Part shown: piece after piece, positions 1,332 through 48,983 of the stretch
How positions within the stretch are numbered: position 1 is the first letter of the stretch
Layout: the number at the start of each line of letters is the position of its first letter
Origin: an uncultured bacterium
Lineage (GTDB): Bacteria > Patescibacteriota > Doudnabacteria > UBA920
DNA: 64,000 bases
NCBI GenBank assembly: GCA_963749445.1
Contig: CAVVMJ010000004.1
Coordinates: forward strand, 16,483-80,482
Reading direction: 5' to 3'
Position numbers and translations under genes: made by a program
Notes under the pieces: generated by a model
Seen by the model: only the letters and a program-made list of their open reading frames with translations
What the model was told of the DNA's origin: nothing
The model's database searches: none

Positions 1332-1431
1332 TTTGATGGGCATCTTCGTGGTTCCACAACCGCTGACTAAAAATTATCAAATGACGATTGGTTGAGGTCG
1401 AGGCTTGTGTTGGCAAGAAGATGCCCATCAA
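1332..1431. mobile_element. MITE-like element copy 1 (~100 bp) with terminal inverted repeats TTGATGGGCATCTTC
   Basis: Left end TTGATGGGCATCTTCGTGGTTCCACAACC; right end GGCAAGAAGATGCCCATCAA, the reverse complement of the left. The internal sequence is shared with the copies at 9624 and, inverted, at 10306 and 48885. Confidence 0.7.
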
Positions 1432-1493
1432 CTTTAATCGAAGTACAAAAAAACTCTCCTTGGACGGAGAGTTTTTTGAATATCGCGATAATG

Positions 1494-2174
1494 TCATTCT
1501 TCAATCGCGAACGGATTGAAATCCGTATCCCGGTCGTAGTAGTCTTCGTGCTCTTTGCGTTTTAAAAAGTTGACCACCGCGTAAGTCAGGGGCGTGGCCA
1601 CCACTTCAAACAAAACTTTAAATACGTAAATCGTGGCCATTAAATTAAACATTGCCGGCAGCGGAAGAACGCCGTAAAAGGCAATTAGCGTAAAAGTAAA
1701 CGAGTCCACTGCTTCGCCCGCAATGGTGGACCCAATTGTCCGGCTCCACAAATATTTGCCCGAGGTCCAGATTTTCATTTTGGCCAAAACAAACGAGTTC
1801 AAAAACTCGCCGGCAAAATAAGCGCACAAACTGGCAAACACCAGCCGCGGCACAAAGCCCAGAATTTGTTCGTAAGCGGCCTGTCCGGTCCAATCCTTGG
1901 CCGCCGGCAAATATTGCACGGCCGCCAAAGTCAATGCCATCATAACTAAGCAGCTAAAACCAATCCAAATTATCCGCCGCGATTTGGCGTAGCCGTAGAC
2001 TTCGGTCAAAATGTCGTCAAAAATATAGGAGATGGGAAACAAAATCGTGCCGCCGTCAAAATTGAACGGGCCAATTCTGGCCACTTTGGCCGAGGCAATG
2101 TTGGAAATAATCAAAACGGCCACAAACAGGCCGCAAATAATGTCGTAGTATTTAAAAATTCTGGTTTGCGCCAT
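1494..2174 (-). CDS. YhhQ/DUF165-family queuosine-precursor (preQ0/preQ1) transporter
   Basis: Polytopic membrane protein with the characteristic ILFPISYIFDDILTEVYGY motif of the YhhQ vitamin-uptake-transporter family. Confidence 0.65.
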   Translation of the reverse strand: MAQTRIFKYYDIICGLFVAVLIISNIASAKVARIGPFNFDGGTILFPISYIFDDILTEVYGYAKSRRIIWIGFSCLVMMALTLAAVQYLPAAKDWTGQAAYEQILGFVPRLVFASLCAYFAGEFLNSFVLAKMKIWTSGKYLWSRTIGSTIAGEAVDSFTFTLIAFYGVLPLPAMFNLMATIYVFKVLFEVVATPLTYAVVNFLKRKEHEDYYDRDTDFNPFAIEE

Positions 2175-2422
2175 ATGGCAATTTTTTGTTGATGGACATA
2201 TTTAGGTAACGCCTATGTGTCATTCCGGAATTTTTGTCTGTCTTTTGCACACATCGGTCAGACAAAAATATCCGGCCTGCCCGCCAAAGCTTCAGCGACG
2301 GCGGGAATCCAGAATTAAGCAATTTCTTGTTTCTGGATCCCCGCATATTTTTCAGGACCGATGTAATCTTTGAACCTGAAAAATTGCGGGATGACAGTAA
2401 CAGGATTAAGCGGATTCGCTTA

Positions 2423-3615
2423 TTAAATAACCACCCTGCGCAAATACGACGGAATCCGCACCAAGACTTCATAGGGAATAGTCTGGCAGATTTTGGCAAT
2501 GTTTTCCACGGAGTTTACGTCAGTCGGATTTGGACTTATCAGGTTTACTTTTTGTTCCAAATGAACGTTGGGCACATCACTTACGTCAATGGAAGTAATG
2601 TTCATGCTCACTCGTCCTAAAATCGGGCAAGCGATATTATCCACCGTAAAACTTCCGGTTCCGGACAGCCTTCTGTCAAAGCCCTCGGTGTAGCCTACGG
2701 GCACGGTGGCGACTTTCATATCGTGGCCAGCGGTAAAGGTAATATTATAGCCAACGCCTTCGCCGGGTTTAAGCGTTCTTATGGAGCTGATTATGGAGAC
2801 CATGCCCAAAGCGGGTTTTAAACCAATTTGGATGTGCGGGGAAAACTTAAAGCCGTACAGGCCGATGCCCAAACGCAAAACATCGGCATCAATATTTTGC
2901 GCAAAGGCCGCGCCGGCCGTGTTGGCCAAATGCTTGAATTTTATGGGTCCGAATTGTTTTCCGCTTCGCCGGCCAGTTTATTCCAAAGCGCGATTTGTTT
3001 TTTGGTAAAATCCGTATTTGCGTTGTCCGCGTCGGCCAAATGCGAACAAACGCCCTCGATTTTGATCAGCGGATTGCTTTTGATGATCTTTATCGCTTCG
3101 GGCAATTCATCGGGCGACAATCCCTGCCTACGCATGCCGGTATCAATTTTCAGATGGAAATTTGCCGCCCGTTTTAAATTTTTATCAATCAGTTTAAGCT
3201 GTTCCAAACTGATTATGGCAAAAGCCGTGTTTTTGAGTTTGTGATGGTTAATGTTTTCGGCCGTAGTGTAGCCCAAAATCAACAGCGGAGTTTTAATGCC
3301 TTCGTGCCTCAATGTCCGCGCCTCAAACAAAGAATCCACCATAAAAAACGGCAAACTCATTTGCCCCCTCTCCCTTTGGGAGAGGGTCGGGGTGAGGGTT
3401 TTGCGATTATAATCATCAAGGATTTTTGCCACCTCCACCAACCCGTGCCCATAAGCGTTGCTTTTTAACACCGGCGCGAATTTTACGTTTGGGCAAAGTT
3501 TTTGGTAAGCGCGCAAGTTATGGAGAATGTTGTCGCGATAAATCAGCACCTCAATCAGCGGCCGGTACGGATCCCGGGATTTTTTGAGTTTTTTTAGTGC
3601 TGATAAAAATGTCAT
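2423..3615 (-). CDS. alr: Alanine racemase, read in two frames (frameshift near 2929-2945) and carrying an in-frame palindromic insertion
   Basis: N-terminal part (3615..2941) has the PLP-lysine motif VLKSNAYGHG. C-terminal part (2929..2423) matches the alanine racemase C-terminal domain. Combined length is ~397 aa. The 21-bp palindrome CCCTCTCCCTTTGGGAGAGGG at 3366-3386 encodes extra residues (PTLSQRERG). Confidence 0.75.
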
Positions 3616-3751
3616 ATGGGTATTATACCCGTTGCTTGGTTTATTGACAATTTTTGTTTTCCGTGTTATTTTAGGGCATTGTACCAGTCTTCCGGCTGGG
3701 GCAATACTTCGTCCCGTTTGAGACGAAAATTTCAAAAAAAGGGGGTTCCTC

Positions 3752-4411
3752 ATGGACCCCGCAGTAAAGAGAAATTTGGAAGACCCTCTCGCGATGTTAC
3801 CGCGCTCAAGCATCGTCGAGTTCAAAAAGGGTCAGCTCATCTACAACAATCGCCAGCCAGCCACTAACATTTATCTCGTGATCGAGGGGAAAGTGAAGGT
3901 CTCGCGGATGGGGGGTGACGGCCGCCAGGTGGTGGTGGATATCTACCAGCCCGACGAGTTCTTCGGGGAGTCGGCGTTCCTGAATCTTTCGCACCGGTCC
4001 GAGCAGGCCATCGCTCTGGACAACACCAGGCTGATGGCCTGGACGACCGAGGAAATCGAGGAAATGATCACGAGCCGGCCGCGCTTGGCGGCAGCGCTGC
4101 TGCAAATCCTCACAAAGCGGTCGATGGATTTCACATGGCGCATCCAGAGCCTGTGTATGGACAATATCGCGCAGCGCCTGGCTCGTTCGCTCATCCTGTT
4201 TGCCGACCGTATGGGGACGCGAGAAAAAGGCAGTCTGGTCCGCATGGCGCCGCTCACCCACGAGCTGCTGGCGCAGTACGTCGGCACGTCGCGCGAAATC
4301 GTAACGCATTACATGAACCATTTCCGGAGAGAGGGCTATCTGGAGTACTCGCGGCAGAGCATCATTCTCGACCGCGATGCCCTGAAGGAGTGGCTGGGGT
4401 ATTATAGCTAG
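3752..4411 (+). CDS. Crp/Fnr-family transcriptional regulator (cNMP-binding domain plus C-terminal HTH); GC-rich, probably horizontally acquired
   Basis: cNMP-binding signature IYLVIEGKVKVS...DEFFGESAF; C-terminal HTH TSREIVTHYMNHFRREGYL. GC content (~58%) is well above the flanking genes. Confidence 0.8.
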   Translation: MDPAVKRNLEDPLAMLPRSSIVEFKKGQLIYNNRQPATNIYLVIEGKVKVSRMGGDGRQVVVDIYQPDEFFGESAFLNLSHRSEQAIALDNTRLMAWTTEEIEEMITSRPRLAAALLQILTKRSMDFTWRIQSLCMDNIAQRLARSLILFADRMGTREKGSLVRMAPLTHELLAQYVGTSREIVTHYMNHFRREGYLEYSRQSIILDRDALKEWLGYYS

Positions 4412-4978: not shown

Positions 4979-5299
4979 GAAGTTGAAGTTGAATTTAGAT
5001 TGATAAGAAAAATATATTTGTGAAATTCGACGACTTTTCTATAAATATTTTTTGCCCCATGAGTATAACAGATATGGGGTATCCTGTCAACAGCTTGGGG
5101 AATTGACGGGGATTGATGGGCATCTTCGTGGCAAATGGGTGAAATTGCGAGCCCCGATGCAGAGGGGCGCGGCAATCCCGATACTTAACGGGATTGCTTC
5201 GTCCACCTTCGCTAAAGCTTCGGCGGATAAATCGGATGCACTCCTCGCAATTTCATTTGATAATTTGAGATCTATAACGGAATCGCCATTTTTGTCCGG

Positions 5300-6673: not shown

Positions 6674-7259
6674 CTAGGAATCACTTTGAAGCAACAGCAG
6701 ACGTGCCCGCGCTAATGCCCGATGCATCCTCACCCTCACGGCCACGGCATTAATGTTTAAAACGCGTGCGACTTCATTCAGCGGCAAATCCGCAATATAG
6801 CGCAGGCGAAAAAGTTCGCGGTCGTCTTCGGAAAGCCTGTTTAAAAGCTGGTCAACTAAAATTTTATTATCCGGTGTATTCCGGCCATCATCAGCAATAT
6901 CATTTTCAGCTAATTGGCCGGTCAGTTTCGTGCCGTGATTTCTGCCAATGCTGCCGGCATTCGTTTTTGGCAATGGCAAATAGCCAGGAACTTACCGGGT
7001 AGCCCCGGGGCTGGAAACGGGGGAGCGCCTGTATGGCCTTAAGCCAGGTGGATTGCAGCAAATCTTCAGCCAAAGTTTTATTGCGCGTAACATTGACCAA
7101 ATAGCCAAACAGCTTGGGGGTTAAGGCGTCCCATAACATCCCCAAAGCTTCTTTGTCGCCATTTTGGGCTTTTTTCACGAGCGTTAGTTCTTGTTGTTGG
7201 TCCATAGGCTGATTGTAGATCAAATTCAATCTTTTCAATAGGATAATACCCCAAAGCAT
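6674..7259 (-). CDS. ECF (sigma-70 family) RNA polymerase sigma factor, read in two frames (frameshift ~6906-6979)
   Basis: Region-2-like sequence (LVKKAQNGDKEALGMLWD...FAIAKNECR) in ORF 6906..7259. Region-4 HTH (LSEDDRELFRLRYIADLPLNEVARVLNINAVAVRVRMHRALARAR) is in ORF 6674..6979. Confidence 0.65.
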
Positions 7260-9623: not shown

Positions 9624-9722
9624 TTAATGGGCATCTTCGTGGCACCACAATTACCAACTAATAACTATCAGATAACGTCTGGTTGAGGTCGGAGGTTGTG
9701 TTGGCAAGAAGATGCCCATCAA
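9624..9722. mobile_element. MITE-like element copy 3
   Basis: TTAATGGGCATCTTCGTGGCACCACAA...GGTTGAGGTCGGAGGTTGTGTTGGCAAGAAGATGCCCATCAA, nearly identical to copy 1. Confidence 0.7.
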
Positions 9723-9769: not shown

Positions 9770-10294
9770 TTATTGAACAATTCTTGCAAAATGCTTTGAT
9801 ATTCGTCCGAATGGTCTGGTCGTGCCCGACTTCCAGGATTTCATCGTTAATATTGGTGGCGAGGTGGTCCAGTTGTAGGAGCCGCTGGCGTAAGTTTTGT
9901 CCGTAACCACGGCCTTGGTATGCATAATGCCGTCTTCGTTGCGTTCGTAAACCGGGATGCCGGCGTTTTCCAGCTCTTTGACAATGTCTTTTTGCCCGCT
10001 GGCTTGGTCTATTTGCGTCTTGTCGGTAAGTCCGATGACGGTTAAGCCGCGGTATTTGGCTCCCAAAAGTGCGTCTTTAATGTCCTGCCGGGTAAAAGTG
10101 TAAACCGAAAAATAAACAAATTTGTCCGCGTCTTGGATGACGCTGATGATTTCCTTGTTTAGTTCATGCTCGTGGTTGTAATAGACCGCGATTTGGTGCG
10201 CGGGCAGGTAGCGGCTGGTGTAGTATATTTGTCCAATAAGTCCTATCAGTCCTATTATAATCAGAATGTATATGGCGTCTCTTTTTGTTTTCAT
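9770..10294 (-). CDS. Phospholipase-D-family (HKD) nuclease, Nuc-like, N-terminal membrane anchor; the C-terminus probably continues in another frame
   Basis: HKD motif IMHTKAVVTDKTYASGSYNW (H-x-K-x4-D...GSxN). An alternative frame after NWTTS gives ATNINDEILEV, the NDEN motif of Nuc endonucleases, which implies a 1-nt indel. The gene is bracketed by MITE copies at 9624 and 10306. Confidence 0.65.
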   Translation of the reverse strand: MKTKRDAIYILIIIGLIGLIGQIYYTSRYLPAHQIAVYYNHEHELNKEIISVIQDADKFVYFSVYTFTRQDIKDALLGAKYRGLTVIGLTDKTQIDQASGQKDIVKELENAGIPVYERNEDGIMHTKAVVTDKTYASGSYNWTTSPPILTMKSWKSGTTRPFGRISKHFARIVQ

Positions 10295-10305: not shown

Positions 10306-10404
10306 TTTAATGGGTATCTTCGTGCCAATATAACCTGCGATCTTAACCAAGCGCTACCTGATAATTATCAGTTAGCGATTGTGGAACCACGAAGATGCCC
10401 ATTA
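10306..10404. mobile_element. MITE-like element copy 4 (inverted orientation)
   Basis: TTAATGGGTATCTTCGTGCC...CTGATAATTATCAGTTAGCGATTGTGGAACCACGAAGATGCCCATTAA. Its reverse complement aligns with copy 1. Confidence 0.7.
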
Positions 10405-10414
10405 ACGATATATC

Positions 10415-17500: not shown

Positions 17501-17794
17501 AGCTTGCGCTGAATTTGGAATTATCCGAGGAGCTCAAAAAGGAAGGCGCTGGCTCGTGAATTGGAGCGCCTGGTGCAGGATTTGCGCAAAAAAAGCGGCC
17601 TCAAAGTCGGGGAACTGGTTGATGTTTATTACAACACGACTGATGGCGGGGTGGAGGAAGCGCTGCTGAATCTGTTTGACCGCAAAAAAACTTTTGTCAA
17701 CCAAGTGCAAAAAAGTTTGGAAGTGGAAGTGGATTTTGAAATTCAGGGACAGGTAGAAGGCAAGACGGTGTGGGTGGGGATGAATAAAATTTAG
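14582..17794 (+). CDS. ileS: Isoleucine--tRNA ligase (IleS), full length but split into at least 7 ORFs by +/-1 indels, with a family-1 palindromic element inserted (16165-16332)
   Basis: [10 protein letters not shown] (HIGH-like), [21 protein letters not shown], the CP1 editing region, the zinc motif CP(K)CGG and the KMSKS motif. The breaks I traced lie in homopolymer runs, for example GGG near 14928 and CCC near 15506. Confidence 0.85.
16165..16332. repeat. Family-1 modular palindromic element inside ileS (A-B-E-C-D arrangement)
   Basis: CCAACCACCCCGTC...GCCCCTCCTCAGCAAGGAGGGC...CTCTCCTCCAAATCTTCGGAGGAGTACCCCGCGATAGCGGGGGAGGTG. Encodes [15 protein letters not shown].... Confidence 0.75.
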
Positions 17795-17799
17795 CTCCT

Positions 17800-17875
17800 A
17801 CGAACGTACGAACTATGTCGAACTACGAACTTTCCGTAGTTCGTAGTTCGTGCCGTTCGTAAGTTCGTAGGATAT
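17800..17875. repeat. Long imperfect palindrome built from TACGAAC units between ileS and recO
   Basis: CCTACGAACGTACGAACTATGTCGAACTACGAACTT / AAGTTCGTAGTTCGTGCCGTTCGTAAGTTCGTAGG, a ~35-bp stem. It may act as a terminator or processing site. Confidence 0.5.
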
Positions 17876-18656: not shown

Positions 18657-18757
18657 TTGATGGGCATCTTCGAGATTGTATTTAAGTTAGCGATAATTTT
18701 TTATGTCGGTTAATAAATATCAATTAATTTTGTAATTGCACGAAGATGCCCATCAAC
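18657..18757. mobile_element. MITE-like element copy 5 (divergent interior)
   Basis: GATTGATGGGCATCTTCGAG...GCACGAAGATGCCCATCAA. Sits between recO and the DUF11 surface-protein gene, next to an extended -10 TGGTATAAT at 18609. Confidence 0.65.
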
Positions 18758-31023: not shown

Positions 31024-31026
31024 TAT

Positions 31027-31064
31027 ATGATTGCATTTTAGACGGCCGTCTAAAATGCAATCAT
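31027..31064. promoter_or_regulatory. Perfect 38-bp palindrome ATGATTGCATTTTAGACGGCCGTCTAAAATGCAATCAT just after the regulator stop; candidate operator/terminator
   Basis: An exact reverse-complement palindrome with the same core and flanks as the site at 30421-30458. It lies upstream of the TGGTATAAT promoter at ~31204 for the VirB6-like gene. Confidence 0.55.
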
Positions 31065-34987: not shown

Positions 34988-35003
34988 ATATAAAGAAGCA
35001 ATC

Positions 35004-36373: not shown

Positions 36374-36420
36374 ATGAGCAAAAATGACAAAATGCTTTTT
36401 AAGCAGAAGTCGAATATTAA

Positions 36421-36834
36421 ATGAAAATTTTTCAATCAAAAGTTAAAAAGTTTGCCGGCACAACTTATGGAGAGCTTTTTCCCCAAGCTTTTGCGGCCTA
36501 TAAAAAATTAAAGAAAAACAGCAAACGAAAACCTTATATCCGTTCGGTTTATTTTGATACCGACAAAATATTTTTGGATTACTTCTGGAATCATCTACAT
36601 AACAAAAATAACATTCGTGATAAAGCAAGGAGGCTAAAGTTTTACGACTGCGCTTTGGATTTAATAGCTAACTCAAGAGTTGAACCTTACTCGTTTCAAA
36701 ATCCTATGACCAATAAAGAGATACTGCATCGTTTTGCCGGTTTAAGTAAGGAAGGGGAAATGTTTTATGTTCAAATTAAAGAAGATAAAAGAACCGATCA
36801 AAAACATTTTATATCGGTATTTCCAGAAACTTAA
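36421..36834 (+). CDS. Hypothetical protein in an AT-rich segment (with 36997..37281)
   Basis: 137-aa ORF with no recognisable domain. The low GC of 36380-37300 suggests foreign origin. Confidence 0.3.
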   Translation: MKIFQSKVKKFAGTTYGELFPQAFAAYKKLKKNSKRKPYIRSVYFDTDKIFLDYFWNHLHNKNNIRDKARRLKFYDCALDLIANSRVEPYSFQNPMTNKEILHRFAGLSKEGEMFYVQIKEDKRTDQKHFISVFPET

Positions 36835-37393
36835 AAGACCTTCCGCCAAGTTGTGGTTGCAGGAACTGCAAGCCACGGCCGAAAGCCTTTTGCCAGATCT
36901 TCCGCAAGTGTGGTATATGAACCACGGGCCGAAGACCTGTATATATACAGTAGCATAAATTATAAAACTGTCAAGTCAAAAATTTAGCTTAAGATTATGA
37001 GAAAAATTATCATTCATAACTGGTTAATTTTCACAGGAAAACGAGGTTTGGATATACTCGCGAATCGGGGGTTGTTTCAGCTTTTATTTTTGACGTTTCC
37101 AAAGGCCTACCTTTGGTCGCGTGGACTGGCGTTCAACCTGCGCCGCTTGTCCGACATGTCCGGCGAAATGTTAGCTTCTGCAGTTGCCTCATTCCGCCTT
37201 GGTGAACATGGGGTGATTCAGTTTATTGCACCCGCGTTTGGAACAATACCTTTTAGTATTCCCGAAAACCATCGTACTTAGCCCTTTTGCCTTTCGGATG
37301 TGCGTTACTTCTTGTTCCAGAAGTTATTGCGCCATTTCCTGCGAAAACTAACCAGTTACAATAAATAAGACGGATTAATTATAATAGTGTTAC

Positions 37394-39154
37394 ATGCAAA
37401 GCGAACATATCCAAACAATCCAAAACCTAATTAAAACTACGGCGGTTTTGACGTCCGCGGAAAAGAGCGAGTGGCTGGAATTGGTGGATTTGATGAACGA
37501 CCGGCAGCTGTTGGAATTGGAGCGGATTTTAGAAGACGCAAACAAGAATCAAGAATCAAGAATCAAGAGTCAAGAAGCAAAACTTACACAGGCGGGCGTG
37601 TCTTTGGCTCAAGTTCGGCCGGCGATTCCATCGGCGATTCCAAAATCAACCGTTCCGACCGCCAAGCCATTGCCGCTTGCCTCGCCCCAATTTTCCCAAA
37701 ATGATATTTTGACGCCGGGAAAGAAAGAACTTTCTAGCACAAGCGCGATTGTAAAATCCTCAAAAATTGGAGCGGGACCGGTTCCGCCCGCGCCAAAAAA
37801 ACTTCCGATTGCCCAGGAGCCGGGGCCCGGACCTTCCTTTAAGCATATTCTCAATTTCCCCAAAGCGGGCGGCCCGTTCGACAAAGCTCAGGGCCGCCTC
37901 GAACGAAGCCGAGATGGCGGCGGCGGTGCGACTTTTCCGCCGTCTGCGGGATCATTGCCGCTTCCGCAAGTCCGTCTGGAAAGCAAAACCATAGAGCCGA
38001 AAAAAGAGTCGCCGTTTTTGAGCAAGCTCAAGGCTATCTTTTCCGAAAAAGAATTGCCGCCCCCGCCGCAAATTCCGCCAGGCGATATTTTGATATCTGG
38101 CAAGAAAGATTTTTCCAAACCAAGCACTGTTGTGGCTTCTTCAAAAATTGGAGCAAGCGCGACTGGGCACACTGATAAATTAGCCGCGTCTAAAACATCC
38201 CCAAAGCCGTTATCGGAATACAAAAAGTCCGAAGCTAGGCCCAAGCCGTCGCCCAAGCTCGAACAACCCGCCAGCACCACCATCAATATTTTCATGAATA
38301 AAGGTGAACCGGCAAAATTTTCCGATTTAGAGCAGGTTGTCAAGGCCATACAGCGACCGTCGGAGTCTTCTCCGATTTTAGGCAAGAGCGAGCCGGCCGA
38401 GGCGGATTTATCAGCGCCAGCTCCAATCGGGGCCTCGCAGCCGCCGCAGCCAAAAATCAGTTATGAGCCCGCGGCCCATTCGGCACAGCTCAGGGCCGCC
38501 CCGAGCATGGCCGAGGGGGCGGCCGCCGCCGTGTCAACCGCGATGTCGGCTGCCAAGGCCGCTTCCGCCGTGGCCCCGAGCGCAGCCGAGGCGGAAGCGG
38601 TTAGCCCGGCTCCCACCCCGTGGAATCAGGAAGAGTCCGGTCTGTACAAGCCGAATAAAAAACCTGATTCGGGAGCCGTGGCGGCGAAAACAACGGCCAC
38701 CCAACAAGGCCTGGCGCCGGGATTAAATTTTTCCGAAGGGCCAAGCGCGGCCGCGCTGAAAAGCAGGCTAATGACCGAGCCGGGCCCGGGACCAAACAAG
38801 CAGGCATCTTCCGCAGTTTCCGCGTCGGGGAGAATTATTTTGCAGGAAAAGCCGGGAGATAATATGAAATTGGAAACCCTGAACGATGTTACGGCCCTTA
38901 AGCCCGATGATTTACAGAAACACGCCACCGGCACCCTGTTCCGCAAATGCCAAAAGCTCATTAGCCAGTACGGGCCGCACGAAGTGGTTTTTCGTTTGGA
39001 GCAAAGTCCTCTATATAAAGCTTACATCAATACCGGCGTGGCTTGGCTGAAAGAAGGGGCCAGAAAAGCCCAAGGCGTCGCCACTTTGCAGCTGCCCGGA
39101 GAAGATTTTGAACGCTTTGTGGATTTTTTGATTATGTTGCGCAGTAGAGCGTAG
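37394..39154 (+). CDS. Pro/Ala/Ser-rich repeat protein with a structured C-terminal domain; contains a tandem 9-mer repeat and two in-frame family-2 palindromic insertions
   Basis: Duplicated block DILTPGKKELSSTSAIVKSSKIGAGP / DILISGKKDFSKPSTVVASSKIGASA. Tandem CAAGAATCA x4 at 37546-37575 (NQESRIKSQE). Family-2 inserts at 37871-37920 and 38471-38520. Confidence 0.4.
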   Translation: MQSEHIQTIQNLIKTTAVLTSAEKSEWLELVDLMNDRQLLELERILEDANKNQESRIKSQEAKLTQAGVSLAQVRPAIPSAIPKSTVPTAKPLPLASPQFSQNDILTPGKKELSSTSAIVKSSKIGAGPVPPAPKKLPIAQEPGPGPSFKHILNFPKAGGPFDKAQGRLERSRDGGGGATFPPSAGSLPLPQVRLESKTIEPKKESPFLSKLKAIFSEKELPPPPQIPPGDILISGKKDFSKPSTVVASSKIGASATGHTDKLAASKTSPKPLSEYKKSEARPKPSPKLEQPASTTINIFMNKGEPAKFSDLEQVVKAIQRPSESSPILGKSEPAEADLSAPAPIGASQPPQPKISYEPAAHSAQLRAAPSMAEGAAAAVSTAMSAAKAASAVAPSAAEAEAVSPAPTPWNQEESGLYKPNKKPDSGAVAAKTTATQQGLAPGLNFSEGPSAAALKSRLMTEPGPGPNKQASSAVSASGRIILQEKPGDNMKLETLNDVTALKPDDLQKHATGTLFRKCQKLISQYGPHEVVFRLEQSPLYKAYINTGVAWLKEGARKAQGVATLQLPGEDFERFVDFLIMLRSRA

Positions 39155-39156
39155 TT

Positions 39157-39460
39157 CCGCTGATTGGTCGCTGGCCCATTCGGCTATGCTCAGGGTCACC
39201 CCGAGCGAAGTCGAGGGGTGATAGGTACGCTGATATGACGCTGAATCCGATAGTTAAAGTTGAACGAAATGTCAAAGATTGTCAAAGATTTTTTGTATGA
39301 GAAGGAATCCTTTGAGATCCGCGGAGTTCTCCTCCTGGAACAGGAGGAGTACCCCGACTTGTCGGGGGGAGGTGGTAGATTTTCCGCAGTTTCATACCGC
39401 CCCGTCCGCTTCGCGGCCACCCCGCCTATCTTAGGCGGGGAGCTCCGCGGTTCAGCGACC
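39157..39460. repeat. Intergenic composite repeat (family-2 element followed by family-1 modules)
   Basis: GATTGGTCGCTGGCCCATTCGGCTATGCTCAGGGTCACCCCGAGCGAAGTCGAGGGGTGATAGG ... TCTCCTCCTGGAACAGGAGGAGTACCCCGACTTGTCGGGGGGAGGTGGTA. The ORF 39260..39505 is only the translation of this repeat. Confidence 0.75.
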
Positions 39461-39667
39461 TATCAGCGTACCAATCCGCCTTCGCATAAAGCTTCGGTGG
39501 ACTAAGTCAGCGTTAATTCAGCGGAGCGTTTCCACTATAATTTGCCTATAAATACCTTAAATTCATACAGTTTGTGTTATAATGAACCTATATGCAACCC
39601 AGTAATACAACCTCCCATAGCGCCACTTTTCTTTGTTTGTCTATAAATTTAAAGGTTTAGTGGAAGT

Positions 39668-40267
39668 TTGCATTTTAATAGCGGTTTCAAAAAAATAAAA
39701 GTGGCGCCGACCAAACGCCTTAAAAGGCCCATAATTTGCGATTATGATGACAAAAATAACATTAACTTACAAAAATTCCTCATGCCTGCAAAAGGCGTTT
39801 GGAATGGGAGGTTGATATACTGGGTGCAATTTCCCGTACCTCAATTTACCGAAGTGGAAGATAAAATTATCGGATCGCTTACCGTTAAGCAGTTCGGGGT
39901 GATTTTTGGCGGCGGCGTGCTGATTTTTTTGGCTTTTACCTTGACCAAAAGCGTTGTTGTGCTGATTTTCGCTGCCGTCATATTCGGCCTGCCGACTTTA
40001 GGTTTGGCTTTTGCCAGGCTTAACGGGCGGCCGATGTACAACATGATCGGGAATTTCGTGGGTTTTTTGACCAGCGCCAAGGTCTTAGTGTTCCATAAGG
40101 AAGGCTCTTTGGTTTCCGATCGGGAGAGAAAAGACAAAACCCCGCCGGTTGCCGCCGCCCCAAACCCGGATGGAACAAAAGCCGTAAGCCCGAAACAAAG
40201 GCTAAGGGAGGTTAATAAGATGCTGGAACAAAACGCGCAGAAGGAAGAGGAGTTGTTCAAGAAATGA
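39668..40267 (+). CDS. PrgI/VirB3-like small two-TM protein immediately upstream of VirB4
   Basis: KIIGSLTVKQFGVIFGGGVLIFLAF matches the PrgI-family 'F.GPLTLRQF.YL..G' segment preceding two TM helices. Gene order PrgI-like then VirB4 is as in monoderm T4SS. Confidence 0.45.
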   Translation: MHFNSGFKKIKVAPTKRLKRPIICDYDDKNNINLQKFLMPAKGVWNGRLIYWVQFPVPQFTEVEDKIIGSLTVKQFGVIFGGGVLIFLAFTLTKSVVVLIFAAVIFGLPTLGLAFARLNGRPMYNMIGNFVGFLTSAKVLVFHKEGSLVSDRERKDKTPPVAAAPNPDGTKAVSPKQRLREVNKMLEQNAQKEEELFKK

Positions 40268-40350
40268 GCATTTAGCATTTAGCATTTAGCGATTAGCCAG
40301 ACATGTTTGGCTAAATGCTAACTGCTAACTGCTAAATGCTAACTGCCAGA
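40268..40350. repeat. Family-3 intergenic element (TTAGCATTTAGC-type)
   Basis: GCATTTAGCATTTAGCATTTAGCGATTAGCCAGACATGTTTGGCTAAATGCTAACTGCTAACTGCTAAATGCTAACTGCC. Confidence 0.7.
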
Positions 40351-43300
40351 ACTATGAAACTGGAAATGCAAAATAAAAATAAAGCCGCAGTCAAATCCAC
40401 GCAAAGTTTTTTGAGAATCAGCGAAATCAAGAACGACGTGGTGGTTTTGGACGACGGCACGCTGCGCGCGATTTTGTCCGTGTCCAGCACCAATTTTGAT
40501 TTAAAAAGCCAGGAAGAACAGAACGCGATTATTTATAATTTCCAACGGTTCGTGAATTCCCTGGAATTTTCCATCCAGATTCTGATGCAAAGCCGCAAAA
40601 TGGAAATCGGCAGCTATTTGGAAAAGCTTAAAAATATCGCGGAAAAGCAAACCAATGAGCTTTTGCGGGTGCAGACGTTGGAATACATAGAGTTCATTAA
40701 CCGGCTGATTGAAAACGCCAGCATTATGAATAAGAATTTTTACGTGATTGTGCCGCTGGATGAAAGCATTTTCCCACCGGCCGGCGGATTCTTTAGCAAA
40801 ATATTCGGCGGCGGCAAGGCCAAGGCGGTAAAACAGCGCATTGAAAATTTTGAGAAGCTTAAGGAAAAATTGGAAAACCGAGTGACGGCGGCTTCGGCCA
40901 ACCTGTCCAGCATCGGCCTGCAGTCCGTGCAGCTGAAAACCGAAGGCCTAATCCAGCTGTATTACAATTCTTACAATTTTGAATCCGCACCCGTGGTGGA
41001 TACCGGCAAGCTGAAGGATATGAATGTTGTTCAATAAGGTGATACCAATATACTAATGCATACGAATGATACTAATAATACGAATCCTGTATCTGATGGC
41101 TTAATTTATAAGGAATTATCGTATTTGATTAACGGAGTTTTGTATTCCACCCACAATGAATTGGGGCCATATGCAAGGGAAAAACAGTATGTTGATGTGG
41201 CGGAGAGAATATTTAAGGAAAAAAGTATTAAATGCATTAAAGGACAACGAATCGGTGATTCAGGCAATATTTTGGATTTGCTGGTGGACGATAAAGTTCT
41301 CTTAGAATTTAAGGCCAAACGGATTTTGACGAAAGAAGATTACTATCAAACCCAAAGATACTTGCAGGAGACAGGTTTAAAATTAGCGATTCTAGTTAAT
41401 TGTAGGGACAAGTATATTAAGCCCAAGCGCATAGTTAGGATTGATAATTGGAAAAATCCGCATTAGTATTATTCGTATTATTCGTATTGATTAGTATATT
41501 AGTATCTTATGAGTTTATTTAAAATCAAAACCGAAAAAGAGCTGGAAGAAAAAAAGTCCATGCTCCAGGAAGCCGAAGCCGAGCACGATTTAAGCAAAAA
41601 ATTGGGCGACGTGGAAAAAATCTACCGCGAAGGCCTGACTACGCTCAAAGGACCTAATCGCTCCGGCCAGCCTGAAATTCCAGAATTCTTATTTTGAACT
41701 CAACGGCAAATTCGCCCGCAGTTTTTTTGTGCTGGCTTATCCGCGGTTTTTATCCAGCAACTGGCTGTCATTCATCATCCAGGCCGAAGGCGCCCTGGAT
41801 TTGTCCATGTTCATTTATCCGATTGATTCGGAGACCATTTTAAAAAAACTTAAATCCAAAGTCGGGGAACTTGGCAGCCAGATGTCCATTAACCAGGAAA
41901 AGGGCATGTGCGCGACCCGATGCTGGAAACGGCCTACAAAGACGTGGAGGGCTTGCGCGACCAGCTGATGCAGGGCACGGAACGGTATTTCCGCTTTGCC
42001 CTTTATTTTACCATTTACGCCGAAGACTTAAAGGAACTGGACAAAGATTCCAGCTACGCTTGGAGAGCGCGTTTGGGGCCAAGTTGATTGTGACCAAGCG
42101 CGCGATAATGCAAACCCAGGACGGCTTTAATTCCACGCTGCCTTTGGGCAAAGACCAGCTGGCTGTGGCAACAACATGAACACCAGCCCGCTGTCCACCT
42201 GTTTTCCGTTTGTGTCCTCGGATTTAACCAGCAATGACGGGATTTTGTACGGCATCAACCGGCATAACAACAGCCTGATTCTGTTTGACAGGTTCGCTTT
42301 GGAAAACGCCAATTCCGTGGTTTTCGCCAAATCCGGCGCGGGCAAATCTTACGCGGTCAAATTGGAAGTTTTGCGCTCATTTGATGATCGGCACGGAAGT
42401 GATTATCGTGGACCCGGAAAACGAATACAAACATTTGGCCGACGCCGTGGGCGGGACTTATTTGAGCGTGAGCTTGAATTCCGACTCGCGCGATCAATCC
42501 GTTTGATTTGCCGCGGCCATTGAAGGCGAGGATAATGCCGACGTACTGCGCTCGGCCGTGGTCAATTTGTTGGGCCTGTTTATCTTTGATGCTCGGCAAA
42601 CTTAACCCGACGGAAGAAGCCTTAATGGACAAGGCCATTTGGCAGACTTACGCCAAAAAGGATATTACGGCCCAGTCGGATTTTACGACCGTGGAGTATC
42701 CGACCATGAACGATTTGGTGGAAATTTTGCACGGCATGGTGGGCGCGGAAAGTCTGGCACAGCGGCTCGAGCAAATTCACGGAAGGCACTTTTGCCGGAC
42801 TGTTTAACCAGCCCACCAACGTGGTGCTCAACAACCAGCTGGTGGTGTTTTCCATCCGCGATTTGGAAGATGAACTGCGGCCCATAGCCATGTACATGAT
42901 TTTAAATTACATTTGGAACGATTGTGCGCAGTGAGCTGAAAAAGCGCATTTTGGTGGTGGACGAAGCCTGGATTATGATGCAGCACGAGGACAGCGCGCG
43001 CTTTTTGTTCGGCATTGCCAAGCGGGCGCGCAAATATTATCTCGGCCTGACCACGATAACCCAGGACGTGGCGGATTTTATGGCGTCGCCATACGGCAAG
43101 CCGATTGTCACCAATTCTTCCATCCAATTGTTGTTAAAACAATCGCCGGCGGCCATTAACATTATCGCGGAAACTTTCTTTTTGACCGAAGGCGAAAAAT
43201 ATCTGCTTTTGGAAAGCGAAGTCGGGGAAGGCATTTTCTTTGCGGGGTTAAAACACGCGGCCATAAAAATTTACGCTTCCTACGTGGAAGACCAGATTAT

Positions 43301-43358
43301 TACCACGGACCCGAAGCAATTATTGGAGATACAAGAGAGCCAGGAAAAGCTTAGCTAA
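40336..43358 (+). CDS. VirB4/TrbE/PrgJ-family type-IV-secretion ATPase, interrupted by a 463-bp mobile cassette (41042-41504) and several +/-1 indels
   Basis: N-domain (40336..41037) with VVVLDDGTLRAILSVSSTNFDLKSQEEQ...LEFSIQILMQSR. After the cassette: FARSFFVLAYPRF, Walker A VVFAKSGAGKSYAVK, TEVIIVDPENEY, Walker B RILVVDEAWIMM, TITQDVADF. Confidence 0.7.
41042..41504. mobile_element. Small mobile cassette: ~45-bp terminal inverted repeats made of ATACTAAT/ATACGAAT units flanking a GxxExxY-family nuclease gene, inserted in virB4
   Basis: Left GATACCAATATACTAATGCATACGAATGATACTAATAATACGAAT. Reverse complement of right GATACTAATATACTAATCAATACGAATAATACGAATAATACTAAT (~40/45 identical). The ORF start codon lies inside the left TIR. 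Confidence 0.6.
41056..41466 (+). CDS. GxxExxY-family protein (PD-(D/E)XK nuclease superfamily)
   Basis: YKELSYLINGVLYSTHNELGPYAREKQYVD...LDLLVDDKVLLEFKAKRILTKEDYYQTQRYLQETGLKLAILVNC matches the GxxExxY / PDDEXK_3 pattern (G..E..Y...A.......G; DLLVE..V.ELKAV......H.AQLL.YL..TGL.LGLL.NF). Confidence 0.6.
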   Translation: MHTNDTNNTNPVSDGLIYKELSYLINGVLYSTHNELGPYAREKQYVDVAERIFKEKSIKCIKGQRIGDSGNILDLLVDDKVLLEFKAKRILTKEDYYQTQRYLQETGLKLAILVNCRDKYIKPKRIVRIDNWKNPH

Positions 43359-43359
43359 T

Positions 43360-43440
43360 AACGATTAACGATTGACGATTAACAATTAACTTCTGATTTT
43401 TGGGGTTAATCGTTAATTGTGAATTGTTAATTGTTTTTTA
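43360..43440 (+). terminator. Family-4 inverted repeat (TAATCGTTAATTG units) followed by a T-run; terminator-like, after virB4
   Basis: AACGATTAACGATTGACGATTAACAATTAAC ... GTTAATCGTTAATTGTGAATTGTTAATTGTTTTTTATTTTT. A half copy lies at 52917-52950 next to tRNA-Arg. Confidence 0.55.
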
Positions 43441-43445
43441 TTTTT

Positions 43446-46038
43446 ATGGCCGACACAGTCACAATTGACGCGGCGGGAACCGCCACCCAGCCGGCGGATT
43501 CCGGCGGAGGCAAGGATCCAAAATTTTGGTCAATCCCCGGCAGTCCCGGGGATTTGCCTGAGGTTACCGTTGGCCGAGTCTATCTTAACCACAATCGTTA
43601 TGTGCCGCCGAGGAGGCAGTTTTTTGGGATAAAAGCCGGGGACACACTTACCTTGACCGGCGATGGCCTGGATGCTTATAACCAGGCGGTGTTTCTTGAT
43701 GACAAGGCAAATGGGCGGAAAAATCAGGAGCCAGTGATAAATCAGTCTTATGGCAATAGGGTGATTGCAACTTTTACAGTGCCGGATTTGGGGGATTTTA
43801 CCGGTTTGCTTCGCTTGCGGCTCACCAGCGAGAATAAGTCGTTTACCAACCGGACGATTGATGAGCCAAAGCTGATGTATTTTGCGGAAACCGAGGAAGA
43901 AAAGAAAAACGGGTTCAATCTAAAGAAGAGGAGGCTCAAAAACAGGCGCGCCAAGCGCAGCAGACGGATATTAAAGGCCAAGAAGCTGAAAAGCCGGCGG
44001 CAGCTAAATCTCCCGCCGCCGCCTCGGCAGCTGATCAGGCAAAAAAACCGGAAGATGAAGGCGCGGATGACGGCGCTGAAGCGGGGGAAACAGAAGAAGC
44101 AGGAACAGAAATACAAGAACAACAGCGGACTATTCTGCCGGAAACTGACAAACAATCCGCGGAACTGGTCGGGGAGTATTTTGACAAGCACCCGGAGGTG
44201 ATAACGGATGCCAAAGTCAGAAGTGAGATTTTAGGAGCGCTTGGCAGCGGCGATTTGACTAAGTTGAGCGAAGAAAGTCGCGCGCAACTGAAACCCGATG
44301 GATCTTTATATCGGCATATCAGCGGCATGGCGCTGATGGGAAATCAGCAGCTGCAATCAATGGGAGTTACTGCCCAACAATCCGTGCAGTTGAGAAGGGC
44401 CATGGAAATCGTCAAAAATCAGACGGTTTCAATGGAAGGGCATGCTGAAGTAGAGGCTACGGTACAAGGCCCGAAGCCGGCGCAAACCGAAGTTAAGCAA
44501 GAAACGGAAGTCCAAGCCAAAACTACGGTCAGCGGCCAGGTTCAGGGCGGAGTCGCGGGGGAGGTAGGTGGGGAAGTTAAGGTTCAAGGCGAAACCTCGC
44601 AACAAATAAAATCTGAAACGTCCGCGCAAGCCGGGACAGAGGCGCAAATTAGCGGACAACCTCAAGTCGGAGCTTCGACATCCGCCACAGCCGAAGGGCA
44701 GGTTTCCGCCCAGGCCGGTCTGACGGCCAAAATTCAGTTGGCGGCAAAGCAGAATATGGGAGAGGTCGGGGAGTATTTGGATAAAAATCGGGACAAAATT
44801 GCCAGTAGCGATTCTGGCACCAGAGACAGAATTTTAGCGGCTTTGGCTAATGGCAGTTCTGATAATTTTAGCGATGCCGATAAAGCTGTTTTAAAGAAGA
44901 CTTTGGAGTTGCTGGGTAAGGATAATTCAGCGCCGGCGCCGGTTAGAGTAGCGGCTGATTCTTTTTTCCAACCCCAATCTGCGCCAGCGGTACCATCACC
45001 CGAATCGCAACCAGCCGCGCAGCAGCCGGCTGAACCATCCGGAAAAAGGAGCCGGAGCCGCAGGCGCCCAAGGAGCCTTTATCGTCTCAAGCAAAACAGC
45101 CTGTCGCTCCCGCGCCTGCTGCGGAACAAGCGTTATCCCAAACAAGTACCCTGGGGCTTGGTACTGTAGATGGAATAAAACCGTCACCTCCGGCTGAAAT
45201 TCCCGAAGCGGCGCGGGAAATTATTGAAAGACTCAAGAAGAAAGGCGAGGAGTTGTCTGGCGCTGCTGGATTATCTAGTGGAGGTGTTGAAGCGGAAGCG
45301 GTTTTATCGGAAGTTCCTTTAAAAACGCAGCTGCCTGGTAAATCCGGAGAACCTGGACAACAGGGGCAGCCGCCTTTGGCCCCTGGAGCCGGCGGAGAAG
45401 GACAAGCGGGCCCGCCTGCTGAAGGAGCGGAAAAAGCGCCGGAACAACCTGCACCGCCAGCGGCTGCCCCCGCGCAGCCACCTTCTCCGGGAGGCGAGGG
45501 TCTTGGCCAACAGCCGACCGCCGTCCCTGCTGCGCCGCCGGAAGCCGAACCTCCTCCGGAAGCGGCAGACGAAGCCGTACCGGAAGCCGAGGCGGCGGTG
45601 GCTGGAGCGGAAGCCGGGACTGCCGCAGGAGCCGCAGCCGCAGCGCCACCCTTGGCAGCAGCTTTGGCAATGGAAGGGATGCTCCCGCCCAGAAAAAAGT
45701 GGTGGCTGGCTTTGTTTGGCGCGTTTGCCGGGCTGATAACATTTTTTGGTTTTTTTGCCGGCTGGGGAGTAATGGTCAGGTATTGGTGGCAGGGCAGGAA
45801 GCTTGCGCCGGAAAAGGCATTATCAAGTTTCCAAAAAATTGCCACGGTAATTTTATTTTTTGTGCCGTTTGTGCTGTTGTTTGGGTTTGTTATTGGGATA
45901 ATTTACATTGGTTGTAATACCCCGATTGTCGGCACCGCGACTAATTTTACCTTAAAATCTTTGGGTTACGGCGATGTATGTAAATCTTTAAATAGCCTGA
46001 CAAGCCCGGGCGTAAATTCCGGCAGCGTCGGGCCGTGA
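43446..46038 (+). CDS. Large low-complexity acidic protein with an N-terminal Ig-like domain and a C-terminal 3-TM anchor, read in three frames (indels near 43905 and 45040)
   Basis: N-terminus MADTVTIDAAG...VTVGRVYLNH...TLTLTGDGLD (beta-sandwich-like). E/Q/A/P-rich middle. C-terminal TM region KKWWLALFGAFAGLITFFGFFAGWGV...FVPFVLLFGFVIGIIYI. Confidence 0.4.
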
Positions 46039-46254
46039 CATTTGCGTGTTTAATTTTTTTGATGGCTTGATGGGAATCTTCTTGCTGATAGTATGGTTTG
46101 CTGTGATTATCGCGCCACCGATAAATATCGGCTGGCGGTAATTCCGCCCCGAAGATTCCCACAAATCCGGAAATCGCAATTTCTTTTGCGTCTTGACAAA
46201 ATTATGATATAATATAAACGAATAAAATTATTATTTATTTTTTGAAACAAAAAT

Positions 46255-47406: not shown

Positions 47407-47480
47407 AAGCGTTTAGCAGATAGCATTTAGCGTTTAGCCAGACAGTTTTGCGTGGCTAAGTGCTAATTGCTATATGCTAA
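47407..47480. repeat. Family-3 intergenic element
   Basis: AGCGTTTAGCAGATAGCATTTAGCGTTTAGCCAGACAGTTTTGCGTGGCTAAGTGCTAATTGCTATATGCTAACAGC. Confidence 0.7.
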
Positions 47481-47490
47481 CAGCTTTTTT

Positions 47491-48813
47491 ATGGCCAAAT
47501 CATCCGTTGTTTTCATCTGTTCCAACTGCCAATATAAAGCTCCGCGCTGGCAGGGCAAGTGTCCGAGTTGCGGGCAGTGGAATACTTTAGAAGAGAGGCA
47601 AGAGATTAGAGATAAGAGACAAGTGGGAAGAGCGTCCGAGCCTTTGGATTTAGGCTCGGTTGATTTAAGTTTGCAAAAACGCATTGTAACCGGCATTTCG
47701 GAATTTGACAGCGTGGTCGGGGAAGGAATGGTGCCCGGCAGTTTGGTGCTCCTCGGCGGAGATCCGGGCATTGGCAAGTCCACGTTGGCTCTGCAGTTGT
47801 CTATGCGGTTGCCGGATGGCGTACTTTATGTCTCCGGCGAGGAGTCCGCGCATCAAATCAAACTGCGGGCTTCGCGCATAAGCAAAACCCAAAGCCTACA
47901 GGTGTTGGCGGAAACCGATTTAGGTGTCGTTTTGGCCACGGTGGAGGCAAACCATCCTTCCTTGGTCATTATCGATTCCATCCAAACTATGTACAGCGAG
48001 GAAACCAGCGGCGTGGCCGGCGGCGTTGCCCAGGTGACCAACGCGGTGCAGCAGGTGATGCGTCTGGCCAAACAGAACCACATTACTTTTATTATAATCG
48101 GCCATGTTACCAAAGAAGGTTACTTGGCAGGGCCGAAAACTTTGGAGCATATGGTGGACACGGTGCTGTATTTGGAAGGGGAACGGTTCGCGAGTTTCCG
48201 GATTTTGCGGTGCGTCAAAAACCGGTTTGGCACGACCAACGAAGTCGGCGTATTTGAGATGGTCAGGGAAGGATTGGTTGAGGTTAAAAACCCGTCGCAG
48301 TTATTTTTGGGGGAGGAGCAATTGCAGGCCAGCGGCAACGTGATAACTTCGGTGATGGAAGGCAGCCGCGCCCTGCTTTTGGAAATCCAGGCGCTCACAT
48401 CCACCACCAACTTTGGTTACCCCAAGCGTACCACGGCCGGGTTTGATAACAATCGCCTGCAATTATTGACCGCGATTTTGTCCAAGCGCGCGGGACTGAA
48501 TTTGTCCAACCAGGACATTTACATTAACGTGGTCGGCGGCATTAAAATAGACGAGCCGGCCGCGGATTTGGCCGTGGCCTTGGCCATTGTTTCGTCGCTG
48601 AAAGATTCGGTAATGGCCGGCACGGTCGTAATAGGCGAGCTGGGGCTTTCCGGCGAAGTCCGCTTTGTGCCGAACCTGGAAAAGCGCGTCAAAGAAGCCC
48701 AAAAACTGGGTTTTAAGCGCGTAATTTGCCCTCGGGGACGGGAAAAACTGGGCGGCGGTCAAATAGAGGTACTACCGGTAAAAACTTTAACCGAAGCCAT
48801 AAAATTGATATAA
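47491..48813 (+). CDS. radA: DNA repair protein RadA/Sms
   Basis: N-terminal C4 zinc finger CSNCQYKAPRWQGKCPSCGQWN. Walker A GGDPGIGKSTLALQ, the KNRFG motif and a C-terminal Lon-protease-like domain. Confidence 0.9.
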   Translation: MAKSSVVFICSNCQYKAPRWQGKCPSCGQWNTLEERQEIRDKRQVGRASEPLDLGSVDLSLQKRIVTGISEFDSVVGEGMVPGSLVLLGGDPGIGKSTLALQLSMRLPDGVLYVSGEESAHQIKLRASRISKTQSLQVLAETDLGVVLATVEANHPSLVIIDSIQTMYSEETSGVAGGVAQVTNAVQQVMRLAKQNHITFIIIGHVTKEGYLAGPKTLEHMVDTVLYLEGERFASFRILRCVKNRFGTTNEVGVFEMVREGLVEVKNPSQLFLGEEQLQASGNVITSVMEGSRALLLEIQALTSTTNFGYPKRTTAGFDNNRLQLLTAILSKRAGLNLSNQDIYINVVGGIKIDEPAADLAVALAIVSSLKDSVMAGTVVIGELGLSGEVRFVPNLEKRVKEAQKLGFKRVICPRGREKLGGGQIEVLPVKTLTEAIKLI

Positions 48814-48884
48814 ATAGTGTCAAGGGTCACCCTTGACACTATTTGAGGAAATGGTTTAGATTGCCTTGAAATAAGGGTTTTTTG

Positions 48885-48983
48885 TTGATGGGCATCTTTT
48901 TGCCAATACAACCCTCGACCATTGTCTATCGTTGGCCGATAATTACCAGTCAGCGATTGTGGAGCCACGAAGGTGCCCATCAA
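48885..48983. mobile_element. MITE-like element copy 6 (inverted orientation) at the edge of the GC-rich DksA/IS1595 island
   Basis: TTGTTGATGGGCATCTTTTTGCC...CCGATAATTACCAGTCAGCGATTGTGGAGCCACGAAGGTGCCCATCAA. Confidence 0.7.

Follow-up and report, generated by a model that had tools for sequence, protein, structure and literature searches.

What are the short sequences, bounded by inverted repeats, that recur between the genes of a 64-kb stretch of DNA from an uncultured bacterium (64,000 nucleotides of contig CAVVMJ010000004.1, hereafter the window)? Each consists of two 15-nt arms in inverted orientation, TTGATGGGCATCTTC ... GAAGATGCCCATCAA, around a spacer of 67-72 nt, and a preliminary description had regarded them as a family of MITEs (miniature transposable elements with inverted repeats). 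Our preferred reading, held with moderate confidence, is that they are copies of a small, non-autonomous, hairpin-forming mobile element of the Patescibacteria (candidate phyla radiation, CPR). Its best-supported comparison is with the REPINs, hairpin-forming doublets of repetitive extragenic palindromic (REP) sequences, and it is a likeness in working that stops short of identifying the element as a REPIN.

The arms are strongly enriched in the window. With up to three mismatches, TTGATGGGCATCTTC is matched 15 times, against a mean of 1.9 and a maximum of 7 in 100 shuffles, none of which reached 15. Inward-facing arm pairs define six full copies of 99-100 bp, plus one solo end, at a density of about one copy per 10 kb. 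All window copies are intergenic and both orientations occur, as had been described, and the coordinates of the five full copies listed earlier are correct to within 1 base. Copy c1 (1333..1431, +; subfamily A) has two exact arms and lies between the convergent genes of an HtrA-like protease (294-1307, +) and a Vut_1 transporter (1494-2174, -), where it adjoins a terminator hairpin. Two further subfamily A copies do flank the PLD-nuclease gene (9770-10294, 174 aa): c2 (9624..9722, +) is downstream of it, within a minus-strand gene string and antisense to transcription, and c3 (10307..10405, -) fills the SmpB-PLD spacer, beginning 9 nt past the SmpB stop codon and ending 12 nt ahead of the PLD start, with arms that carry a compensated change (TTAATGGG...CCCATTAA). 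Copy c6 (48885..48983, -), also of subfamily A, directly follows a T-run hairpin between the convergent RadA (47467-48813, +) and DksA-type zinc-finger (49145-49528, -) genes. Copy c4 (18657..18756, +), between RecO and the gene for a DUF11/CLIPPER protein, has two exact arms and a divergent interior akin to those of subfamily B and of the Doudnabacteria copy L003 (L numbers denote loci outside the window). What had been listed as a solo end at 46066-46084 turned out to be the left arm of c5 (46067..46165, -), a full if degenerate copy, the sixth in the window. This distant relative of subfamily A scores 58 bits over its whole length against the family-A profile, and its arms have 1 and 3 mismatches, one of them compensated. 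The solo left arm at 5113..5136 (+) is real: an exact 15-mer without a partner arm, continued by about six bases like the start of the family-A interior (GTGGCA) and matched by family profiles at 5113-5133. The supposed relic at 2186 (near 2189) has three mismatches and no partner, and is indistinguishable from the approximately two matches expected by chance.

Arms and interiors are conserved to different degrees. Within the window, the arms are 80-100% identical and the interiors 47-79%. The internal core that had been described as shared is present in the copies at 1333, 9624, 10307, and 48885, the interiors of which are 70-79% identical, but not in the copy at 18657, the interior of which differs (47-55% identity with the others). 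Judged by their interiors, the copies at 1333 and 9624 lie in the + orientation and those at 10307 and 48885 in the - orientation.

The family extends beyond the window. Representative genomes and metagenomes were scanned for both arms with a gap of 55-85 nt allowed (85-115 bp in total), and the metagenome copies were chosen by exact 12-mers in both arms. The representative genomes yielded four sites, in two metagenome-assembled genomes of Saccharibacteria and one of Doudnabacteria, and the metagenomes yielded 36 loci. Six of the latter (L006, L013, L019, L021, and L024/L037) were discarded as family members; they are whole-contig long perfect palindromes around ATGGGCATCTTC and look like fold-back assembly artefacts or unrelated inverted repeats. 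In the metagenome hits the outer three bases of the arms at first seemed to covary strikingly, an effect that came from these palindromes. Counting the representative genomes, 30 further copies lie beyond the window, about 26-27 of which are genuine metagenome copies, most of them from metagenomes with the contig prefixes Ga0182017-Ga0182028. These copies together with the window copies, all bounded by TTG...CAA, form the set of 36 used below. Total length in this set is 97-102 bp, although the scan accepted 85-115 bp, and the arm starts are 84-87 bp apart. Sorted by interior, 14 copies (four of them in the window) belong to subfamily A and 11 to subfamily B, and the rest make up several small groups; similarity between the interiors of different subfamilies is essentially random. 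No paired-arm match was found in viral contigs, plasmids, or phages, where BLAST likewise gave no match; the 98 single-arm matches found there are close to the chance number by our own rough estimate, and none has a convincing partner arm.

Several loci outside the window depart from the common form. L039 has variant outer bases (TAGATGGG...CCCATCTA), and L007 and L014 have a 16-nt core in common; all three may be genuine variants. L012 (9447-9539), on a Gemmataceae contig of 62% GC, has a shorter arm pair beside a primase-polymerase/AAA gene, with 87 nt between the outer ATGGG...CCCAT and only a 13-nt core in common; it is an uncertain member that may be a distant non-CPR relative or a coincidence. 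At L027 (12-107), a 42-nt mini-hairpin has, besides its two arms, no more than a 6-nt extension and a loop (TAGATGGGCATCTTCTCGACA/TGTCGAGAAGATGCCCATCTA), and a third, solo arm lies 54 nt upstream, an arrangement that recalls REP singlets and clusters. L002 (5804-5982) and L004 (981-1159), on the same Saccharibacteria contig, have about 40 nt of common flank on each side and are 86% identical over 179 nt; in that genome, therefore, the repeated unit exceeds the arm-bounded core or the copy lies within another repeat. The triplet that follows the right arm is C[T/C][G/C] in 10 of 14 interior-oriented copies, several of which have a CYGCGTAAG-like motif. This observation covers the subfamily B copies L017, L008, L018, L022, L025, L029, L032, and L003 and the window copy at 18657, and the triplet could stem from a preference for certain targets or from an element that is slightly longer.

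Comparison of related loci bears on whether the copies have moved. The synteny of ArgRS-SmpB-PLD and of RecO-DUF11 is kept in the relatives L042/L043 and L044-L046 (SmpB approximately 81% identical), and exact, fuzzy, and profile searches found no copy in these 20-kb regions. In L042 and L044, neither the SmpB-PLD nor the RecO-DUF11 spacer contains the element, and a profile search across the loci of the relatives L042-L053 found none. L005 (RecO 60% identical) has a subfamily A copy within an older hairpin of the IleRS-RecO spacer, a site at which the window has no copy. The genes flanking copies at different loci are unrelated, and the contig of L011 ends inside a copy, as expected of a repeat. 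The absence of the element from orthologous spacers, taken with its presence at other sites in relatives, therefore indicates that copies arise at new sites and are not ancestral to their spacers, and that the family behaves as mobile DNA. To this extent the preliminary description, of dispersed, non-coding repeats that are about 99 bp long, end in terminal inverted repeats (TIRs), and behave as mobile DNA, is borne out.

The way in which such an element might move is indicated by its ends, which are complementary to each other. At each of the 15 arm positions, 34-36 of the 36 copies are paired, compared with approximately 22-36% of copies at the six positions that flank them on either side. 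Positions 16-20, which extend the stem, are subfamily-specific yet complementary (GTG/CAC, TAGCA/TGCTA, TCACA/TGTGA, AAGGA/TCCTT), and compensated changes occur within the arms of c3 and L030 (G3>A with C>T), c5 (C9>A with G>T), and L039 (T2>A with A>T). Given how few arm mutations there are, a rough hand calculation puts the chance probability of the two compensated pairs in the window at about 0.003. The compensated changes in the arms and in the stem extension point to a hairpin rather than to two protein-binding ends, as ends that pair are expected of a folded single strand, whether DNA or RNA, and not of transposase-binding ends that mutate independently. It is the arms that make whole copies fold strongly, with z scores of -4 to -8 for RNA of either strand and -2.4 to -8.4 for single-stranded DNA; 17 of 18 folds have z scores of -4 to -8, and the exception is the DNA fold of c6 (-2.4). 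An interior motif, GATAA/TTATC, was considered as a shared feature and set aside, as it is restricted to subfamily A by descent.

We propose that recognition and movement would act on the folded hairpin of the element, most likely in the form of single-stranded DNA. Cutting and rejoining would be the work of an enzyme provided in trans and would involve no staggered target cuts, as has been proposed for REPINs moved by REP-associated tyrosine transposases (RAYTs) of the RAYT/HUH type, and a DDE cut-and-paste transposase would be unlikely. The sequence of the spacer would drift freely while its length is held constant. Lying inside operons, copies would be co-transcribed, which would place a perfect 15-20-bp double-stranded stem in the mRNA, where it may affect processing or stability as a side effect. 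It is conceivable, though doubtful, that the arms are the recognition site of an undescribed trans-acting enzyme or host factor common to Saccharibacteria, Doudnabacteria, and the lineage of the window; hairpin repeat and enzyme would then form a second type of long-lived partnership, REPIN-RAYT-like in its working and independent of RAYT.

The borders of the copies bear on a different mode of transposition. A classical MITE would be an internally deleted derivative of an insertion sequence (IS) with a DDE transposase, either the IS1595-family element of the window or another, and would be moved by cut and paste via its TIRs. The size of the copies, their TIRs, their dispersal in both orientations, their intergenic sites, and their presence or absence among relatives all suit this origin, and the window contains an IS1595-family transposase open reading frame (ORF) at 49666-50460. 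IS1595-family elements make target duplications of approximately 8 bp. A target-site duplication, as looked for under the MITE reading, was found in none of the 36 copies: no direct repeat of 2-9 bp occurs at the borders (0 of 36 with identical flanks for k=2-9), and positional flank identity is 17-29%, i.e., at the random level. The candidate inverted repeats of the element at 49.6-50.5 kb (49657-49681 and 50501-50525), which had been put forward for comparison with the arms, bear no likeness to them, and no arm-like match lies within 49.5-50.7 kb; IS1595 was rejected as the parent on the ground of these unrelated repeats. Compensated changes between the arms are unexpected for two independently bound ends, and no longer element bounded by the arms was found in the loci examined or in viral contigs. 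What stands of the MITE reading is a short, non-coding, TIR-bounded, multi-copy sequence with presence and absence among relatives; the target duplication and the resemblance to IS1595 ends do not, and we regard an origin as a classical MITE as distinctly improbable.

The transposase that would be expected of a REPIN-like element has a candidate in the window. A RayT-family gene (62517-63008, -) was picked by a profile built from solved Y1 transposases and the Escherichia coli RAYT. Its ORF scores 22.4 bits against Pfam Y1_Tnp (cut-off 23), its homologues are annotated as RayT, and the protein has an HUH motif (HVH) and a tyrosine region (IREYIGNNP). In relatives the gene is found in conserved synteny (M48 peptidase-RayT-RecX-ClpB), as expected of a vertically inherited RAYT. 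The gene in the window is flanked by a different hairpin, GTAGGGGAGGATATTATCCTCCCCTAC, and was rejected as the mobilizer of the present copies, as it is syntenic and single-copy, with GTAG hairpins of its own to which those of its homologues are related, and the RayT loci of relatives are without copies. The link that defines a REPIN-RAYT system does not hold for this gene. Besides it, no IS200-type TnpA was found in 372 kb of cellular sequence (window plus L001-L053).

The RayT genes have a feature of their own. A perfect 27-nt hairpin lies in frame inside the coding sequence of the window gene (62724-62750), where it encodes VGADNIRPY, and a near-identical hairpin lies just past the stop codon (62489-62515). 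The homologues L047, L048, and L050 have an internal hairpin and a related flanking one, with a lineage-specific sequence in L048, and the encoded peptide is kept as VGADxIRPY or VG-xGxKP. The internal hairpin is possibly a REP site that lies within the gene of its own transposase.

A number of observations weigh against a hairpin-forming mobile element. No transposase or other gene consistently adjoins the copies, the neighbors of which are unrelated housekeeping genes. Four of the five distinct homologous RayT loci examined (window, L047, L048/L049, L050/L051, L052/L053) are flanked by GTAG hairpins that are unrelated to the arms (no hairpin was found upstream of the L050 homologue, and the L052 homologue has one upstream only), and the RayT loci of relatives contain no TTGATGGG copy. 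The arm is not itself a REP-like hairpin and is without GTAG; each arm holds only a 4+4 quasi-palindrome, GATGGGCATC (GATG-GG-CATC, with a 4-bp stem and a 2-nt loop). The interiors alone have a weak folding excess (mean z -0.74, with 9 of 36 below -2), and in subfamilies A and B neither a consensus structure of the interior nor covariation past the terminal stem was found. At the level of reads, neither excision nor insertion of a copy was seen, and the relatives are only approximately 70-80% identical in DNA, too diverged for exact empty sites to be aligned. Finally, the invariance of the arms outside the window is partly an ascertainment effect, because exact 12-mers were required in both arms.

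The positions of the copies raise the question of whether they serve the host. The genes on either side of a copy are co-directional or convergent, and relative to local transcription copies occur in the sense as well as the antisense direction. They nearly fill very short spacers; at loci other than the window they start 0-15 nt past the stop codon, and in L003 the arm provides the stop codon of ribosomal protein L9. The copies could be a cis-acting module of the host, a portable hairpin (RNA or DNA) that selection retains in the spacers of operons and the spread of which is a secondary matter; it would act as a 3'-end stabilizer, as an RNase III-type processing site or attenuator, or as a paired site for a sequence-specific CPR protein. 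Copies situated 0-15 nt past stop codons within gene strings must be transcribed. The arms are near-invariant across Saccharibacteria, Doudnabacteria, and the lineage of the window, while the interiors have diverged to unrelatedness, and the orthologous copies L018 and L029, in the same orientation, have identical arms and interiors that are 63% identical, a comparison weakened by ascertainment on exact arms. The quasi-palindromes of the two arms lie approximately 84 bp apart. Moreover, the SmpB-PLD spacer contains some long hairpin, differing in sequence, in the window, L042, L153, and L154, which suggests that this position needs a hairpin.

Against such a module, an RNA hairpin needs no invariant stem sequence to function, and the arm invariance in metagenomes is in part due to ascertainment. 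The same spacers in most relatives are without the element, and L044 has no obvious hairpin at SmpB-PLD. Subfamily interiors are common to unlinked loci, which indicates spread by copying and not independent origin. The copies are without a terminator T-run, and promoter matches in them reach only the background level (9/12 positions), so the earlier suggestion of promoter or terminator modules finds no canonical promoter or intrinsic-terminator signal within the copies. We consider a host function unlikely as the primary explanation, though it is a serious rival that is also compatible with a mobile origin; processing or stability modules in CPR operons might also have been recruited from hairpins of the mobile element.

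The strong fold of whole copies, with the z scores given above, could also be read as that of a structured non-coding RNA gene, and an ATG in each arm (ATGGGCATCTTC = MGIF...) could begin a micro-protein. Several subfamily B copies have a 14-codon ORF, MGIFLLQIKLxDxC*, with some synonymous-looking differences. A covariance-model search against Rfam 15, made in view of the structured RNA suggested earlier, gave no family at the gathering threshold, and relaxed settings gave only generic miRNA-type hairpin noise (E > 0.1). The copies are both sense and antisense to local transcription; where the preliminary description had set a fixed-orientation RNA with covarying pairs against the MITE reading, both orientations were found, and the covariation is confined to the terminal stem, with no consensus structure in the interior. 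The RNA gene was rejected on these grounds. The ratio of nonsynonymous to synonymous changes (pN/pS) in the ATG frame is 0.47 and 0.62, not below that of the control frames (0.48-0.53), and neither stop positions nor frames are conserved; the micro-ORF was rejected for want of frame-specific constraint. An RNA or peptide gene is thus very improbable.

Copies may, in principle, also delimit cassettes, as recombination sites of the integron attC or dif-module kind or as the ends of a composite transposon carrying PLD. They are imperfect palindromes of attC-like length directly after stop codons; two inverted copies bracket the PLD-nuclease gene, and in L017 two direct copies bracket an HtrA-like gene. 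However, the bracketed genes are housekeeping genes, and the synteny ArgRS-SmpB-PLD is kept in relatives without the element, on which ground PLD was rejected as cargo of a composite transposon. On inspection the ends read TTGATGG...CCATCAA and are without RYYYAAC/GTTRRRY cores. There are no same-orientation arrays, the copies being scattered both ways among syntenic housekeeping genes, and no integrase was found among the window proteins scanned against Pfam. This reading is hardly credible. Flipping of the interior, as in an inverton, was also rejected, given the common orientation of L018 and L029 and a spacer of approximately 70 bp that we judged too short.

The DNA in which the copies lie is an ordinary chromosome stretch of a CPR (Patescibacteria) bacterium. 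The named relatives of its SmpB and RayT-like protein are Doudnabacteria, Patescibacteria, Parcubacteria, Roizmanbacteria, and Uhrbacteria, and the host is therefore a CPR bacterium. Its genes include those for an HtrA-like protease, Vut_1, alanine racemase, Crp, tmRNA, SmpB, ArgRS, IleRS, and RecO, as well as UvrD, KsgA, RadA, RecG, ClpB, RecX, and three tRNAs. Some essential genes are split, namely IleRS into five ORFs (14582-17559) and alanine racemase (2423-3825), ClpB (59158-61740), and a sigma factor (6674-7259) into two each; the consecutive ORFs point to assembly frameshift errors or pseudogenes. The region at ~26000-46000 encodes mostly unannotated proteins, including a 1217-aa ORF, a PrgI-family protein, a TraG/VirB4-type P-loop fragment, a PD-(D/E)XK nuclease, and a PaaX/Cas2-like protein, and c5 lies at its right edge. 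From its gene content, this block may be a conjugative or type-IV-secretion-like island. At 53813-53903, the Rfam selenocysteine tRNA model scores 50.3 bits (gathering score 47), and ARAGORN calls tRNA-Ser(TGA); the long variable arm has probably led to a false-positive selenocysteine call.

Other repeats share the intergenic spacers. Many spacers contain long hairpins of 70-110 nt built of tandem heptamer-like units in inverted arrangement (TACGAAC, TAGCATT, TAACGAT, CTTTACTAAC, and others). Examples in the window are at 17796-17872, 24962-25038, 40255-40352, 43351-43446, and 61856-61938, and in relatives at L042 10433-10530, L153 677-766, and L154 561-675 and 1510-1613; the hairpin at 61856-61938 is of the same family as that in the SmpB-PLD spacer of L042. 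Another family of palindromic repeats, GAAATTGCGAG...GCAATCC...GGGATTGC...GGATGCACTC(C)TCGCAATTTC, has two copies. One, at ~5140-5254, lies approximately three bases after the solo arm at 5113 and is unrelated to the arms; the other, at 50537-50615, adjoins the IS1595-family ORF.

Genomes of CPR bacteria are small, tightly packed, and generally regarded as poor in mobile DNA, and in the literature we found no description of MITE- or REPIN-type repeats in these bacteria. Arm sequences common to CPR classes would mark horizontal exchange among uncultured symbionts and would help to find the enzyme that recognizes them. The combination of compensated arms with borders free of target duplication allows single-stranded hairpin transposition to be tested outside the known RAYT systems. 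The repeat would also explain contig breaks in CPR assemblies, such as that within the L011 copy. If the family were an ordinary MITE with a parent IS elsewhere in the genome, it would be of cataloguing interest only.

Among known bacterial MITEs, the Neisseria miniature insertion sequences (NEMIS, or Correia elements) and the enterobacterial repetitive intergenic consensus sequences (ERIC, or intergenic repeat units, IRU) are approximately 100-150 bp long, have TIRs, are borne in operons and co-transcribed, and form long RNA hairpins. The present element resembles them in being intergenic, bounded by TIRs, found in either orientation, and capable of a long RNA hairpin. It has no sequence similarity to them, and whereas Correia duplicates a TA target and has promoter and integration host factor (IHF) motifs, the present family has neither the duplication nor convincing promoter or terminator motifs.

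The palindrome-associated transposable elements (PATEs) and other non-autonomous derivatives of IS200/IS605, which use Y1 HUH transposition via single-stranded DNA, are similar in inserting without target duplication and in relying on DNA hairpins. The start of the present element is always TTGAT, the pentanucleotide behind which ISDra2 inserts, and its end is TCAA, the right cleavage site of IS608, a correspondence that is a lead and not a test. However, the ends of IS200/IS605 are asymmetric, with their own subterminal hairpins and no TIR, whereas the present ends are exact inverted copies without separate hairpins. TTGAT/ATCAA are here simply the outermost paired bases, and target specificity is inseparable from the inverted repeat.

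The closest comparison is with REPINs, in which two invariant 16-mers in inverted orientation enclose a spacer that is critical in length and hairpin capacity, and which are dispersed extragenically (PMC3116915). The two differ in several respects. REPs are usually short imperfect palindromes preceded by GTAG, whereas the present arms are without GTAG and are not stable REP hairpins. A RAYT system has a cognate single-copy RAYT flanked by the same REP, which is not the case in the window, and no copy lies near any RayT examined. REPINs are described as vertically inherited within lineages, whereas the present arms are common to distant CPR classes, and the spacers of the REPIN "quasispecies" are far less diverged than those seen here. 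Compensated pairing of the REPIN type is present in the arms and in a stem extension of 3-5 bp, and the spacer beyond it has no consensus structure, with the low mean z score reported above. In their general plan, however, the two agree: like the REPINs of Pseudomonas fluorescens SBW25 (GI-GIII) and the bacterial interspersed mosaic elements (BIMEs) of E. coli, the present family has conserved inverted ends of 15-16 nt around a less conserved spacer of kept length, can fold into a long hairpin with compensated changes, here in the arms and the stem extension, and is extragenic and dispersed, with no target-site duplication reported and with singlets as well (PMC3116915).

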